Shown piece by piece: positions 23,616 through 37,471 of a stretch of DNA of 40,554 nucleotides. The notes beneath the pieces are model-generated. The model was given only the letters and a program-made list of their open reading frames with translations, had not been told where the DNA came from and did not search any database. Made by a program: the position numbers and the translations under genes. Origin of the DNA: a virus. Positions within the stretch are counted from its first letter, which is position 1. Each line of letters opens with the position of its first letter. The stretch is from the UHGV virus genome UHGV-0200722. One strand, written 5' to 3'.

Positions 23616-23641
23616 AAACCCACCGTCAGGTGGGTTTTTTG
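23616..23641. terminator. Bidirectional rho-independent terminator between the Panacea module and mnt
   Basis: AAACCCACC-gtcag-GTGGGTTT flanked by an A-run and a T-run. Confidence 0.8.
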
Positions 23642-23877
23642 TACAAATCCTTCAGCGTATCAAACACCATCTTCTTAACAAGCTCTGACTGCTCATCAGC
23701 GAGTCGTTCTGCATCGTCGCGATATCCAGTCACAGGCGATGGTTTTGATAGAGCATCTTGGACGATTTGTAACAACTCGGAGTTCATTGATCTCCCATTC
23801 GCCTCCGCCCTGAATTTTAATTTCTCCCTTACTTCCATAGGCATACGGAAGTTAAAGTGCGGATCATCTCTAGCCAT
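23626..23877 (-). CDS. mnt: Mnt repressor (immI maintenance repressor of ant)
   Basis: 83-aa translation is essentially P22 Mnt as recalled (MARDDPHFNFRMPMEVREKLKFRAEANGRSMNSELLQIVQDAL...). Confidence 0.95.
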   Translation of the reverse strand: MARDDPHFNFRMPMEVREKLKFRAEANGRSMNSELLQIVQDALSKPSPVTGYRDDAERLADEQSELVKKMVFDTLKDLYKKPT

Positions 23878-23967
23878 GCCATCACTCCAAGTTAGTGTAT
23901 TGACATGATAGAAGCACTCTACTATATTCTCAATAGGTCCACGGTGGACCTATATTGTGAGGTGAAT
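23878..23967. promoter_or_regulatory. immI control region: Pant (-35 TTGACA 23900..23905, -10 TATATT 23923..23928) with Arc operator in the spacer, and Mnt operator palindrome AGGTCCACGGTGGACCT (23935..23951)
   Basis: Sequence ...gtattgacatgatagaagcactctactatattctcaataggtccacggtggaccta... matches the classical P22 Pant/Oarc/Omnt arrangement. Confidence 0.85.
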
Positions 23968-24129
23968 ATGAAAGGAATGAGCAAGATGCCGCAGTTCAAT
24001 TTGCGGTGGCCTAAAGAAGTATTGGATTTGGTACGCAAGGTGGCGGAAGAGAATGGTCGGTCTGTTAACTCTGAGATTTATCAGAGAGTAATGGAAAGCT
24101 TTAAGAAGGAAGGGCGCATTGGCGCGTAA
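23968..24129 (+). CDS. arc: Arc repressor
   Basis: Internal start [53 protein letters not shown]; matches P22 Arc (53 aa). The track ORF from 23905 is an upstream extension. Confidence 0.95.
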
Positions 24130-24133
24130 AGTT

Positions 24134-24200
24134 GAAGCCCCAACTGCGGGAACAGTCAGGGCTTCGGTTGTCAGTAAATCCGTGGAGAAAAACCAACATG
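24134..24200 (-). ncRNA. sar: Candidate sar-like antisense RNA region across the arc-ant junction (boundaries approximate)
   Basis: In P22 a small antisense RNA covers the ant RBS and ends at a hairpin between arc and ant; a GAAGCCC...GGGCTTC hairpin lies at 24134..24164. The promoter was not identified here. Confidence 0.3.
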
Positions 24201-25133
24201 AATAGTATAGCAATTTTAGAAGCAGTGAACACCTCTTACGTACCATTCAACGGTCAGCAAATTATCACCGCCATGGCTGCCGGAGTTGCATACGTTGCGA
24301 TGAAGCCAATCGTTGAAAACCTTGGAATGAGCTGGTCAACGCAGCAAACAAAACTCATGAAGCAGATTAGCAAATTCAACTGTGTTCATATGAACATGGT
24401 TGCCGCTGATGGGAAGCTTCGTAAGCTACTCTGCCTTCCTTTGAAGAAGTTAAATGGATGGCTGTTCAGCATCAACCCTGAGAAAGTTCGTGCTGACATC
24501 CGTGATAAACTGATTCAGTACCAGGAGGAATGCTTTAGCGTGCTGCATGACTACTGGACTAAAGGCCATGTAGTTAACCCACGCAAAGCTAAAAAGGCGT
24601 TGCCGGGTAAAATCACCACTGAGCAGCAGGAAGCCATTAAACAACTCGTCATGAGTCGCGGTCAGTCTCTGCCAAAAGAAAAACAGGCGAAGGCAATGAT
24701 TACCATGTGGTCGTCACTGAAATCCCATTTTGGATGTTCGTACAAAGAAATCAGTGAGGAGCAGTTTACCGAAGCACTGTCACTTGCAGCTCGAGTTCCA
24801 CTTGAAGGCGAGTTCATTGGCAAACAAGAGAGGAAAGTCAAAGAGCTTTCTGCAAAAGAAGCAAACAGCCTTGTATGGTTATGGGATTATGCCAACCGCT
24901 CACAGGCATTATTCCGCGAACTGTATCCGGCGCTGAAACAAATTCAATCGAACTATTCCGGCAGATGCTACGACTATGGTCATGAGTTCTCGTATGTTAT
25001 CGGAATGGCGAGAGACGTTTTAATAAACCACACACGAGATGTTGATATCAATGAGCCAGACGGACCAACGAATCTTTCCGCATGGATGAGACTTAAGAAT
25101 AAAGAATTACCTCCTTCAGTACATAACTACTGA
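24198..25133 (+). CDS. ant: Antirepressor Ant
   Basis: Start [14 protein letters not shown]... at 24198 downstream of arc; ~311 aa; classical immI position. Confidence 0.85.
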
Positions 25134-25311: not shown

Positions 25312-27654
25312 ATGACAGATATTACAGCCAATGTTGTAGTGAGCATGCCTTCGCAACTCTTCACTATGGCTCGTTCTTTTAAAGCCGTAGCCAATGGCAA
25401 AATTTATATCGGTAAAATTGACACTGACCCGGTAAATCCTGAAAACCAGATTCAGGTTTATGTGGAGAACGAAGACGGTTCTCACGTTCCTGTTTCGCAA
25501 CCAATCATCATTAACGCTGCTGGATATCCGGTATATAACGGACAGATTGCCAAATTCGTTACCGTGCAAGGCCATTCCATGGCTGTTTATGATGCGTACG
25601 GTGCTCAGCAGTTCTATTTTCCTAATGTGCTAAAGTATGATCCAGATCAGTTTAGGCAGCAGCTTGCAGTAGTTGATAGCAATGTATTGATTTCTGGTGT
25701 TCCAGCAAAAGATGTTGTAAATGCCAAAACTGGACGAGCACCAGTAGTTATGACTCGAAAAGTTACAGACCTTCTTCTTGATGGTAAGGCTGGATTGCGT
25801 AAAAACTTTGGTGCTGTAGGCGATGGTAGTCATGACGATACACAGGCATTTAATGATCTGTGGGATGCGCTTATGGATCCGACATATAAACGCCGCGCAA
25901 TAGAAACAGACGAGGTTGGTCTGCCATTTATGATACAAAAAGGCCCGGCACTTCTAATTGAAAATGGAACGTTTATTTACAATGGGCCTGGTCTCAATAT
26001 TGAAACATCAGATTCATTTGTATTTAACATATCAGGTGAGAGCAGTATTTCAACAAAGATACTTTTACCAGATGGAGTATACCTATTCGATTTCGATAAT
26101 AACCCTGTTCATGCATATCTAGGGAACATGTCAATTCATGGTGGTAAAGGTGCTGTTCGATACAAATCAAAAGAACGATCAACTAACAGCATTCACCTTT
26201 TCGAAAATCTTCGCCTGTCGAGATACAAGGAGTGTGGCATAGGGAATAATTCAATCGATATGCCGTATTTCCGAGTGAAGGGATGCATGTTATACGGGGA
26301 CCCAGCAAGCCAGACTATTGGTATTTGTGTCTCTGGTTACTCTGCTGGCGGCTTCATTGAGGACTGTGTTATCAGCGACAATAGATATAATATAAAACTG
26401 GCAGTTGGTGATAATGGCGTGGAGCGTAATGGCCCTGCAACGCCTTTCTATGTCTGCAGGAACGACATGTACCGCACGGGGCGACGAGCGCCATCAGCAT
26501 CGTATGACATATGGATTGAGCCTGGTGCTACTACCCTCAACTCTGGGAGAGGTATTCAGATAATCCAAAATAAATTTGGGCAAGAAAACCTAATCGCACC
26601 AGATACTCATGTTTTGATCGCAGATGCTGCCGCTACAGGGAGCGGGTTAAATCTCAATGGAGATCGCGCTCATATAGAAACACAGTCAGTTGGTTTTGTG
26701 TCTGGCTTACGTTTCGAGGGGAATAACGTAAACTCAGCTAATAGTGGATATATTGCCCCTTTCATTCGCTCATTTACGCCAAACCTTGGAAATAACAAAA
26801 TAAATGACCTTTATGACAATGACATGCCAGCAAGAATCATAGAGTTCGCGGGTGGCATAACCCAAAGTCAAATGACTAACCTTTCACGTACCAACGTCTT
26901 TAGTGCAGACCAATGCATTGCGCTTCAGAAGGGTGTTGAACCTAAGTTGTTATCTAACCTTAATGATGTCTTCCGGCTTGATGATCCTTTGGGGTTCTAC
27001 GTCGGGCATCCTCAAGCTCAGGTTTTACCGTCAGGTTCTCAGCAGATTGGATTTGAATTGATCTACTCTGGGCCGACGTCGACGATTGGGGTGAGTAACG
27101 CAACAAGATTATCGGTAAATAACTCATATGGAGGAATATCGGAAGCAACTGAAATCACAATGACCGCTTCTGATGGCGTGGCAGTTGCCACTGTTGTTGG
27201 CGGACTTGCTGGTAGGAAGCACTGGATTGATTTCGAGCTTAAGCGCGGGACAACAAACCCTGTTGGTTCTGTTGTTGTGGAGATAATGGATGCTTCCGGG
27301 TCAGTTCTCCAACTTCGTCGTATTATTTTAATAGATACTTTTCCACGCTGGCAGAAAGTCGCCATTCCTTATATTCCAAATGAAGACGGTAATATTGTAG
27401 TCAAATTCAGATCTAATCTTTATTCGGCTGGAACGGCAACTAACTTTATTGTCGGAAATCTCAATGTTTACAGGAATGAGGAGCGAGTCAATACAGGGCA
27501 TAACTCAGGATTGAGGATGCAATGGAATCTACAACATACCGTAAGAGGCACAAGACACGAGTGGTATGACGCGTCAGGTAATTTACGCTCCAAAAATGGG
27601 GTGCCGAGTGGGGATGCCGATGGGGTAATCATTAGCGCTAACCCAACATTGTAA
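25312..27654 (+). CDS. Tailspike protein (P22 gp9-type head-binding domain; divergent receptor-binding domain)
   Basis: First ~110 aa match the P22 gp9 N-terminal domain ([12 protein letters not shown]...[34 protein letters not shown]...VLKYDPDQ); the remaining ~670 aa are unrelated to P22 gp9. Confidence 0.9.
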
Positions 27655-35426: not shown

Positions 35427-35753
35427 TCAAATAAGTGGTTTGCTGCCTAATTTCATTTTCTGGCGACCAACACAAGTCACCCCCATTTCACTGCGTGGCT
35501 TGCTGTACCATGTGCGCTGATTCTTGCGCTCAATACGTTGCAGGTTGCTTTCAATCTGTTCGTGGTATTCAGCCAGCACCGTAAGGTCTATCGGATTCAG
35601 TGCGCTTTCTACTCGTGATTTCGGTTTGCGATTCAGCGAGAGAATAGGGCGGTTAACTGGTTTTGCGCTTACCCCAACCAACAGGGGGTTTGCTGCTTTC
35701 CATTGAGCCTGTTTCTCTGCGCGACGTTCGCGGCGGCGTGTTTGTGCATCCAT
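35427..35753 (-). CDS. N: N antiterminator (lambda-type)
   Basis: From the internal start MDAQTRRRERRAEKQAQWKAANPLLVGV... the translation matches lambda N, including the arginine-rich boxB-binding motif; a lambda nutL lies upstream. Confidence 0.9.
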   Translation of the reverse strand: MDAQTRRRERRAEKQAQWKAANPLLVGVSAKPVNRPILSLNRKPKSRVESALNPIDLTVLAEYHEQIESNLQRIERKNQRTWYSKPRSEMGVTCVGRQKMKLGSKPLI

Positions 35754-35996: not shown

Positions 35997-36040
35997 AATA
36001 TACCTACAGGTAAAACCCATGTCTATACCTGTAGGTAAAT
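35997..36040 (-). promoter_or_regulatory. PL promoter (-35 TAGACA, -10 TATATT on the - strand) overlapped by OL operators TACCTACAGGTA (36003..36014) and TACCTGTAGGTA (36026..36037)
   Basis: 12-bp inverted-repeat operators of the form TACCT-NNN-GGTA, also present at OR; hexamers separated by 17 nt. Confidence 0.65.
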
Positions 36041-36098: not shown

Positions 36099-36124
36099 TA
36101 TAAAAAAGCCCGCTTTGCGGGCTA
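36099..36124 (-). terminator. Rho-independent terminator after the cI-linked operon (read on - strand)
   Basis: AGCCCGC-aaag-GCGGGCT followed by TTTTTTATAT on the - strand. Confidence 0.75.
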
Positions 36125-36134
36125 AAAGGAGATG

Positions 36135-36449
36135 TCAGAAGCTATTTGGATTGCTTGGCCATTGCGGCAATTTTGATTCTACTGGGGTGTGTTTGGGTTT
36201 GAGTCCGTTTAAGTAGTCAAGGCGCTCAATGGCGCATTTATACATAGCAATCTGCTCTGATGACATGTCGTCGTATGACATGCCTTTGAACTTTTTAATT
36301 ATCGATTCTGCCTCATGTATAAGATTCTTCTTCCTCATGAGTTCAGTTGTATGCTTAGAGCTTACAGGAGATAACTTTGCCCATATGAAGCAGATGATTA
36401 CAACAGCGACTACTATGCCGGGTATAAACATTTGCTGCTTTATCCTCAA
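36135..36449 (-). CDS. Small single-pass membrane protein cotranscribed with cI (candidate lysogen-expressed exclusion or defence protein)
   Basis: 104 aa with N-terminal TM helix FIPGIVVAVVIICFIWAKL; start codon overlaps the cI stop (ATGA); a terminator follows directly. Confidence 0.65.
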   Translation of the reverse strand: MRIKQQMFIPGIVVAVVIICFIWAKLSPVSSKHTTELMRKKNLIHEAESIIKKFKGMSYDDMSSEQIAMYKCAIERLDYLNGLKPKHTPVESKLPQWPSNPNSF

Positions 36450-37132
36450 ACTTTTGGCAGATCGTCCTGGTCTACGTACCTGGTGTGTTTCACAATAGCT
36501 GAAACAAAATGCATTTTATCAACTTCTTCAACAGGAAGAGTGATTGGGCGGTGATCACTGTTTATGCTACTAAACTGATAATCACCGTCTCTTGTTTTGT
36601 TCATGATCTTTATCATGTTGTGACCGTCTTTGGTCCTTACAAAGACTTCATCACCTGGATGTACTGGCGTATTTGGTTCAATAACAACATATTCTCCTGA
36701 CTGAATCCTTGGCCACATGCTGTCACCCTTAACCTTCAGACCGTAAGCATCTTTATCGCCGCTGTAGATGCTTAACCAACCGGATCTGAATTCAATCATA
36801 TCCACTGAGCCATCAACTCCCAAAACGGCTTCACCAATTACCGGAACAAAACCCGCACGAACGTTACCCGCAAACTCAAGATGGTCCGTAGCTCCAGCTT
36901 TACCATCTGCAAGCATGTCCATCCATCCGCGTGGGAGATTAAAAGATTTTTCAATTAGTTCCATCATATCGTCAGCAATGCGTTTTTTTCCGCTTTTTCC
37001 TTCCGGATACAGCATTCTGGAAACGTATGATGGTTCCCTTTCTATTCGACGAGCCAACTCTGAGGCCTTTCCATTACAGAATCGGTCTCTTATCTCTATC
37101 AGCCTTAGTCGTCTTTGTTCGTATTTATCCAT
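36446..37132 (-). CDS. cI: cI-type immunity repressor (HTH plus S24 LexA-like autopeptidase domain)
   Basis: 228 aa; C-terminal domain with Ala-Gly site(s), GDSM serine motif and a downstream Lys; divergent from cro; flanked by OR and OL. Confidence 0.9.
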   Translation of the reverse strand: MDKYEQRRLRLIEIRDRFCNGKASELARRIEREPSYVSRMLYPEGKSGKKRIADDMMELIEKSFNLPRGWMDMLADGKAGATDHLEFAGNVRAGFVPVIGEAVLGVDGSVDMIEFRSGWLSIYSGDKDAYGLKVKGDSMWPRIQSGEYVVIEPNTPVHPGDEVFVRTKDGHNMIKIMNKTRDGDYQFSSINSDHRPITLPVEEVDKMHFVSAIVKHTRYVDQDDLPKV

Positions 37133-37149
37133 GATTTAATTCTATCTTT

Positions 37150-37210
37150 GATTACCTGCCGGTAAATAACCTATGGGTATTGATTTGCTTTTTACCTACA
37201 GGTAAACTCA
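37150..37210. promoter_or_regulatory. OR/PR/PRM region: operators TACCTGCCGGTA (37154..37165) and TACCTACAGGTA (37194..37205); PR -35 TTGATT (37180..37185), -10 TAAACT (37203..37208)
   Basis: Same 12-bp operator family as OL; sits between divergent cI and cro. Confidence 0.7.
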
Positions 37211-37240: not shown

Positions 37241-37471
37241 ATGGAAGAACTCCGCTTGTATCTGAACTCCCTTTCACTGGAAGAGCAGAGAGAATTTGCC
37301 ACCAAGTGCGGAACTTCTATCGGCTATTTGAGGAAAGCACTTAGCCGTAATCATGAATTGGGCGCAGCACTTTGTGTTCTGATTGAGAGGTTCAGCAATG
37401 GTGAAGTGACTCGCAAAGACCTTCATCCGGTTGATTGGGAAAGCATCTGGCCTGAATTAATGGCCGCTTAA
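37241..37471 (+). CDS. cro: Cro-like repressor (HTH)
   Basis: 76-aa protein transcribed divergently from cI off PR; HTH-like segment ATKCGTSIGYLRKAL; GGAGA RBS. Confidence 0.75.
   Translation: MEELRLYLNSLSLEEQREFATKCGTSIGYLRKALSRNHELGAALCVLIERFSNGEVTRKDLHPVDWESIWPELMAA

Follow-up and report, generated by a model that had tools for sequence, protein, structure and literature searches.

A small membrane protein encoded behind the cI repressor gene of a P22-like phage as a candidate superinfection-exclusion factor

What is the function of the small gene that lies between the cI repressor gene and the leftward promoter in the virus genome UHGV-0200722? The stretch of DNA analysed (the window) is this genome at its full length of 40,554 nucleotides, in which a short minus-strand open reading frame (ORF) sits inside the immunity region, with cI on one side and the leftward operators (OL), the promoter pL and the antiterminator gene N on the other. 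The interval between cI and N is a published mosaic hotspot, which holds rexAB in lambda and bstA in the Salmonella prophage BTP1 (PMC8585504). A sequence-only reading of the locus had placed there a membrane protein cotranscribed with cI and had proposed for it, by position, an exclusion function. Our results confirm the ORF and its place next to cI, the strand being a detail which that reading had not stated, and assign its product to the protein family PHROG 10450. The best reading overall, which we put forward tentatively, is that of a lysogen-expressed inner-membrane exclusion or defence factor that would be analogous to SieA of phage P22, while unrelated to it in sequence. For the broader proposal of some anti-phage exclusion or defence role we see the case as evenly poised, whereas the narrower one, a block of DNA entry through interference with ejection proteins, is possible by analogy and somewhat doubtful.

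The gene is real, as shown by an intact reading frame in six of the six copies compared, by a dN/dS of ~0.17–0.23 (thus ~0.2) between diverged E. coli lineages, by the conservation of length, transmembrane (TM) helix and invariant residues among homologues, and by a match to PHROG 10450 at E=2.4e-53 in which residues 7–104 of the longest form align with profile positions 1–98 of 98. All tested members match the same profile, including P0022 (5e-38), P0011 (1e-27) and P0006 (2.7e-28). The homologues, gathered with a profile search and with HMMER, run in full over 1.8 billion representatives, are 97–114 residues long and 31–43% identical, with one N-terminal hydrophobic helix each; their sources are E. 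coli, Shigella, Salmonella, Citrobacter and E. fergusonii, and all are labelled 'hypothetical protein'. They form two clades, of which clade I comprises the window protein, its counterpart in phage mEp043 and the two metagenomic proteins P0006 and P0007 (whose encoding contigs were found by exact look-up), and clade II the remaining members, 31–38% identical to the window protein by BLAST, plus ORF14 of phage N7. Matches in Pfam and NCBIfam fell far below the curated cut-offs, PADLOC returned none, none of the PHROGs that carry a superinfection-exclusion annotation gave a match at E<=1, and a profile search of the six-frame translation of the window found no second copy of the family. The sequence-only reading had recognised no family; this holds for Pfam, NCBIfam and PADLOC and fails for PHROG 10450, itself annotated as of unknown function.

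The window protein is identical to DAM00972.1, from a metagenome-assembled genome labelled 'Caudoviricetes sp.', and the immunity region is 98.6% identical to that of phage mEp043 (JQ182734), in which the ORF is entered as a hypothetical protein. Among 50,697 phage records the family occurs only in phages N7, HZ41 and mEp043. Of 5,426 complete E. coli genomes, 52 (~1%) have the 351 bp of the locus, always as a single copy that abuts the same cI gene. The order cI–ORF–N is kept in all six places returned for the sequence P0002 and in the four copies examined from the 52 E. coli carriers, and in both sets the neighbours past N and past cII vary. Hundreds of GenBank entries are identical and labelled 'hypothetical protein', yet the NCBI pipeline PGAP annotates the ORF in only two of the 52 carriers, and it seems that a small membrane protein, although conserved, is being systematically missed. 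Among papers that mention mEp043 or related terms none was found to treat the small ORF, and we found no description in the literature of the PHROG 10450 family, its architecture or its dual location; the general kind, cargo carried between cI and N, is already known.

The start of the gene differs from that first proposed. The open frame extends upstream to a TTG codon, giving a 104-residue form (36135..36449, minus strand), and the four bases that it has in common with the cI stop codon read TTGA, not ATGA as the sequence-only reading had it. The homologues all begin M/V-[FYW]-I-[PS] at what is codon 7 of the long form, a codon that the window spells ATG and mEp043 spells GTG, and in a clade II homologue a perfect TAAGGAGG stands five bases ahead of the equivalent GTG. 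When the cI–ORF junction is aligned with L020 and L021, the most distant of the cI-linked relatives, nothing there corresponds to the TTG, and the [A/G]TG is aligned. The mEp043 ORF has itself been annotated in two ways, with 98 residues (JQ182734) and with 104 (PV340537). On the strength of the homologues' starts, the ribosome-binding site and the junction alignment, the likely product has 98 residues and is read from the ATG at 36431, 14 nt past the cI stop, so that the gene occupies 36135..36431 on the minus strand (stop codon 36135..36137) and the earlier length of 104 residues is probably too long. The in-frame stretch upstream of the ATG (36432..36449, minus strand, back to the TTG) is probably untranslated; it holds the Shine-Dalgarno sequence GAGGA (36443..36447), which overlaps the cI stop codon.

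The protein has a simple predicted anatomy. A TM helix at codons 2–20 (36372..36428, minus strand; FIPGIVVAVVIICFIWAKL) has a Kyte-Doolittle mean of 2.53 over its 19 residues, the second-best 19-residue segment scoring 0.05, and is the only TM segment, in agreement with the single N-terminal helix described earlier. There is no lysine or arginine ahead of the helix and there are four in the 15 residues after it; every family member likewise has none ahead of it and two to six in the 15 residues after. By the positive-inside rule an N-out/C-in topology is predicted, with a basic domain of ~78 residues facing the cytoplasm, and the product is thus probably a membrane anchor with a cytoplasmic domain. 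A 15-sequence alignment has 12 invariant positions (I3, H27, K34, I38, E40, A41, M56, C66, A67, L71, W91 and P92), and the presence of just one invariant cysteine is in keeping with a cytoplasmic domain without being proof of one. An AlphaFold model made with the family alignment (pLDDT 79) extends the TM helix into a long helix covering residues 5–47, followed by a loop with the motif S-[WY]-x-[DE]-M, a second helix (58–76) with C-A-I-E-R-L and an extended W-P tail, from which we infer that the soluble domain may be a helical hairpin with a conserved W-P tail. The homology and structure searches that had been proposed as a check gave, beyond PHROG 10450, no informative fold or sequence match among solved and viral structures; when the family profile was searched against the sequences of solved structures, only designed helical proteins came back, at E>=0.18.

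The layout around the gene argues for its expression together with the repressor. The cI gene (36446..37132, minus strand) encodes a LexA-like protein of 228 residues with an S24 autopeptidase domain (Peptidase_S24, PF00717, E=1.4e-17; PHROG 4, 'transcriptional repressor'), and its mEp043 counterpart carries the annotation cI / prophage repressor. Between cI and the small ORF there is a 14-nt gap without a terminator, and, because of these two features, the simplest reading is that both would be transcribed together from the maintenance promoter; that the ORF is a real gene co-expressed with cI we regard as very probable. A rho-independent terminator (36101..36123, minus strand; AGCCCGCAAAGCGGGCT then TTTTTT) would close the cI–ORF transcript. 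Its hairpin lies 11 nt past the ORF stop and has a 7-bp stem with six G-C pairs (36123..36107), the T-run comes next, and its folding energy is -12.5 kcal/mol (z = -2.46), which bears out the strong terminator noted earlier. The operator palindrome TACCTNNAGGTA has five matches in the window against 0.47 expected, and four of the five flank the cI–ORF unit, two on each side: at 37153..37164 and 37193..37204 in the rightward operator (OR) region (37153..37204), and at 36001..36012 and 36026..36037 in the OL region (36001..36037). A pL-like promoter (35997..36025, minus strand; TAGACA-17-TATATT), which the OL operators overlap, is annotated 'putative PL' in mEp043 and has identical hexamers in L020. 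The first gene of the pL operon encodes a lambda-type antiterminator N (35427..35753, minus strand, 108 residues; PF11438 N36, E=2.1e-26), called N in relatives. The rexAB-equivalent position ascribed to the ORF is thus upheld, with the operators flanking it.

A consensus scan placed a maintenance promoter (PRM)-like site at 37139..37166 on the minus strand (TTTACC-16-TAGAAT), to which we assign that function by inference and which overlaps the operator at 37153..37164. Its -10 element ends 6 nt ahead of the cI ATG, and the cI mRNA would then be leaderless or nearly so; the lambda cI mRNA is leaderless. A second promoter-like site (TTGGGA-17-TATGAT, 36795..36823, minus strand) lies within cI and is directed at the small ORF. 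It is the same in L020 (4610..4638), where cI is only 85% identical, and could be an internal promoter analogous to pLIT of lambda or merely conserved coding sequence. A type I toxin-antitoxin or antisense RNA arrangement was considered and rejected, the sole antisense promoter-like site (36275..36302, plus strand) having 9 of 12 consensus positions, L020 having none, and the region as a whole having no more promoter-like sites than chance would give. No Rfam family reached its gathering score in the region. A small RNA, svsR, has been reported from the 3′ end of a different lambdoid cI gene, that of prophage NC-SV (PMC12803456); it was set aside as an identity for this locus, since it belongs to NC-SV and none of the 52 carrier genomes is that of strain NC101. 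Divergent from cI, the cro-position gene (37241..37471, plus strand) encodes 76 residues, is called Cro in PV340537 and has a weak YdaS match.

Comparison within clade I reveals that the small gene stays with the immunity module and changes rapidly there. Clade I members always lie directly 3′ of an S24 cI. In the metagenomic relatives L020 and L021 the ORF begins 3–4 nt past such a cI and ahead of pL and N, and its product is 42–43% identical to that of the window, against 84–85% identity for cI; at the nucleotide level identity is ~78% over cro–cI, falls to 40–60% within the ORF and is 83–85% at OL/pL. Between the window and mEp043 the ORF has five nonsynonymous substitutions and one synonymous, whereas cI has no nonsynonymous and three synonymous, an asymmetry with a one-tailed hypergeometric probability of ~0.05 on small counts. 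The contrast in identity and this substitution asymmetry together point to a gene that remains in its module, yet evolves much faster than the repressor to which it is attached. The two phages differ in their virions. The window phage is a P22-like podovirus, with genes 7, 20 and 16 at 18066..22022 and a tailspike gene at 25312..27654, and mEp043 is a lambda-like siphovirus without P22-type ejection proteins. One immunity module (cII–cro–cI–ORF–OL/pL, 98.6% identical) is therefore seen both in the P22/HK620-like podovirus of the window and in a siphovirus, from which it follows that clade I travels with cI and not with gp16.

Clade II occupies a different site. In ten intact contexts, all P22-like phages or prophages, the family gene lies between the ejection gene 16 and the mnt/arc/ant/tailspike region; in nine of the ten it is convergent with gene 16 and abuts it, the exception being L025, which has a 72-residue ORF between the two. 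The gene is often the last of a same-strand run that begins with mnt. One further copy is found in a degraded remnant, L008, where P0009 (4001..4345, 114 residues) lies in what appears to be a decayed P22-like element with gp7 and a short gp20-like gene, adjoining genes for a type VI secretion system Hcp protein and a Tlde1-domain protein. The clade II position is that of sieA in P22. Where sieA is present it always lies between genes 16 and 9, it is present in only 22 of 66 P22-like phages, and the mutations by which phages escape SieA affect the C-terminal parts of gp16 and gp20 (PMC10883804). By tblastn no sieA homologue was found in the window or in any checked family locus, and a relaxed regular expression for the SieA motif FxRYPxEAxxFNK, run on six-frame translations of the window and the loci, matched only P22 itself. 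The presence of distant homologues in the sieA slot of P22-like phages that have no sieA supports, independently of the cI-linked position, a role in exclusion.

The clade II proteins also covary with gp16. Across eight clade II loci the identity matrix of the family protein correlates with that of the adjacent gp16 with a Mantel r of 0.92 (p ~6e-4), against an r of 0.58 with gp20. In three loci (L010, L013 and L016) identity is 99–100% for the family gene and for gp16, against 35–76% for gp20, and the family gene and gene 16 behave in these loci as one recombination unit; their immI neighbours differ entirely (tailspike-side ORFs, arc/mnt/Bro-N, P63C). The covariation fits a type-specific functional coupling between the family protein and gp16.

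Set beside known systems, the protein most resembles SieA in what it may do and where its relatives lie. Both would be prophage-expressed inner-membrane proteins (expression of the window protein being deduced from its operon), and clade II relatives hold the exact sieA slot, convergent with gene 16, in phages that have no sieA. The conserved motif of SieA, too, has a predicted cytoplasmic location, and escape from SieA arises through changes in the gp16 and gp20 C-terminal regions (PMC10883804), gp16 being the protein with which PHROG 10450 covaries. The differences are nonetheless substantial. SieA has 3–4 TM helices (PMC10883804) and 162–200 residues, whereas the window protein has one TM helix, about 100 residues and no FxRYPxEAxxFNK motif; the window gene lies in immC behind cI, the slot between genes 16 and 9 (immI) being that of clade II only; and the SieA types (A–C) are alike in target specificity, whereas the PHROG 10450 family seems to be matched to the gp16 type. 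Homology between the two was rejected (hhalign probability 0.3%), SieA belonging to PHROG 7745.

The likeness to RexAB of lambda is one of position between cI and OL/N, with a terminator at the end and, for the window ORF, predicted co-transcription from PRM. RexAB has two genes, for a cytoplasmic sensor (RexA) and a polytopic membrane protein (RexB), whereas the window has a single 98-residue bitopic protein; moreover RexAB acts by abortive infection, whereas for the window protein an entry block is judged more likely. Identity with RexAB was rejected, there being a single ORF between cI and the terminator and no Pfam or PADLOC similarity. The bstA gene of BTP1, a P22-like prophage, likewise comes directly after cI and has its own terminator, and BstA is highly expressed in lysogens (PMC8585504). 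BstA differs in being a far larger, soluble, DNA-associated abortive-infection protein with a cognate self-immunity DNA element, aba; no aba-like element was seen, no search aimed at one having been made. BstA was set aside as an identity, as PADLOC gave nothing and Pfam nothing above threshold, no direct comparison with BstA having been made. HK97 gp15, which blocks DNA entry at the inner membrane, is also a small prophage-expressed lambdoid membrane protein, encoded by a moron with its own terminator; it has 62 residues, its gene lies in the tail cluster, and homology with it was rejected (hhalign probability 0.65%). The Sie2009-type proteins of lactococcal P335 phages are small, anchored at the N terminus, encoded beside the prophage repressor and expressed in lysogens, where they block DNA injection by other phages. 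They form an unrelated family from Gram-positive hosts, and we liken the window protein to them by description only.

In the mechanism that we favour, the small gene would be transcribed with cI from the maintenance promoter, the transcript ending at the terminator just ahead of OL/pL. Translational coupling to cI is probable, because the Shine-Dalgarno sequence overlaps the cI stop, and, given co-transcription with cI, the protein would be expected in every lysogen. The N-terminal helix would anchor it in the membrane with the soluble domain towards the cytoplasm, and its most likely action would be at the inner membrane, on the delivery of incoming phage DNA, in the manner of P22 SieA, whose target is the conduit formed by the ejection proteins gp16 and gp20. 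A more extended version would see PHROG 10450 as a new superinfection-exclusion family, replacing SieA in many P22-like phages of E. coli, Salmonella and Citrobacter, specific for and co-evolving with gp16 types, of which one branch has been captured by the cI operon and moves between podoviral and siphoviral lambdoid phages; this we consider doubtful.

Several points weigh against an exclusion role. The positional argument is one of guilt by association, since prophage-expressed slots also carry non-defence cargo. The idea of an exclusion function proposed by the sequence-only reading gains from the position and from the distant homologues in the sieA slot, but the protein has no homology to a characterised exclusion or abortive-infection protein, as judged by PADLOC and by hhalign against SieA and HK97 gp15. 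The predicted topology derives from the positive-inside rule only. The fast divergence could reflect relaxed constraint and not an arms race, and the covariation with gp16 could be plain physical linkage, as the two genes are mostly a few bases apart. Clade I is itself unlinked to gp16, occurring in a siphovirus, mEp043, with no P22-type ejection proteins. Finally, NCBI PGAP leaves the ORF unannotated in 50 of the 52 complete carrier genomes.

These points leave room for other readings. An unlikely one is that the protein is a lysogenic-conversion or prophage-physiology factor without a defence role, modulating a host inner-membrane process such as a transporter, a protease such as FtsH, envelope stress or the control of induction. 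Clade I genes are linked to one lysogeny repressor gene, cI, and clade II genes often to another, mnt; this linkage, with the co-expression that it implies, would suit such a factor, as would the lack of any tie to a defence family and the way in which clade I accompanies cI whatever the virion, podovirus (window) or siphovirus (mEp043). It would, however, leave unexplained the tight association with gene 16 and the apparent mutual exclusivity with sieA, and divergence far above that of cI is a trait more usual in conflict genes than in housekeeping genes for host interaction. Quite unlikely, in our view, is an abortive-infection effector, whose cytoplasmic domain would sense a phage component and whose oligomerisation would collapse the membrane potential or kill in another way, as in RexB/RexAB or the membrane-anchored prophage abortive-infection proteins of other bacteria. 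The slot is that of the abortive-infection systems rexAB of lambda and bstA of BTP1, a single TM helix with a predicted cytoplasmic domain and fast evolution would be in keeping with such an effector, and a membrane-anchored prophage protein of this kind is on record in S. aureus (PMC10127798). Yet the locus has neither a separate sensor gene nor a PADLOC hit, the second habitat of the family is an injection-blocker (sieA) slot and not an abortive-infection one, and covariation with a virion ejection protein better suits an entry block.

The same covariation could be turned inwards, if the protein handled the membrane-active gp16 of its own phage, neutralising or guiding it so as to protect the producer cell or aid the entry of its own DNA. 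The clade II genes covary strongly with gp16, and the pair is conserved as a unit while both flanks recombine; however, the family gene is opposite in strand to the late operon and occupies repressor-linked, prophage-expressed positions, the window copy belongs to the cI operon, with 14 kb between it and gene 16, mEp043 carries the family gene but no gp16, and most P22-like phages are without the family, which leads us to regard this as very unlikely. That the ORF is non-functional, being a chance frame or decaying remnant in a region that is in truth a 3′ untranslated region with its terminator, or a small RNA, is extremely improbable. The PGAP omissions (50 of 52 complete genomes), the mostly nonsynonymous substitutions among very close copies and the precedent of the small RNA svsR (PMC12803456) could all be read in its favour, but homologues of 27–43% identity keep the length, the TM helix and the invariant motifs in two unrelated contexts and several genera, dN/dS is ~0.2 at greater divergence, the ribosome-binding sites are good and no Rfam family reaches threshold.

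The sieA slot of the window phage itself holds another small protein. Convergent with gene 16, the gene at 22042..22371 (minus strand) encodes 109 residues assigned to PHROG 8100 (annotated as of unknown function), with one N-terminal TM helix and a coiled-coil-like domain. It was rejected as a homologue of the cI-linked protein (hhalign probability 0.25%), and, the proteins at the two sites being unrelated, the window phage has two small bitopic proteins in two prophage-expressed slots. Between this gene and mnt lie two plus-strand genes, for a Panacea/SocA antitoxin-domain protein (22740..23189; PF13274, E=8e-25) and a 139-residue partner (23194..23613) with a weak PADLOC hit to NsnC (4e-6), which may form a PanA-type toxin-antitoxin or defence pair (22740..23613). 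The immI region continues with mnt (23626..23877), arc (23905..24129) and ant (24195..25133).

How the ejection proteins of short-tailed phages assemble a trans-envelope channel, and how resident prophages block it, are poorly understood, and SieA is, to our knowledge, the sole characterised inhibitor of that channel. If the extended exclusion reading of PHROG 10450 is correct, nature would have provided, in the small domain that faces the cytoplasm, a type-specific inhibitor of the conduit for podovirus DNA delivery at its inner-membrane end. A second protein in the sieA slot, unrelated to SieA, much smaller and matched to the gp16 type, would provide a simple genetic and structural probe of the DNA-delivery step at the inner membrane. 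Such a protein would also explain patterns of exclusion among the prophages of E. coli, Shigella and Salmonella, and would make the interval downstream of the repressor gene a further example of a general dock for anti-phage cargo.

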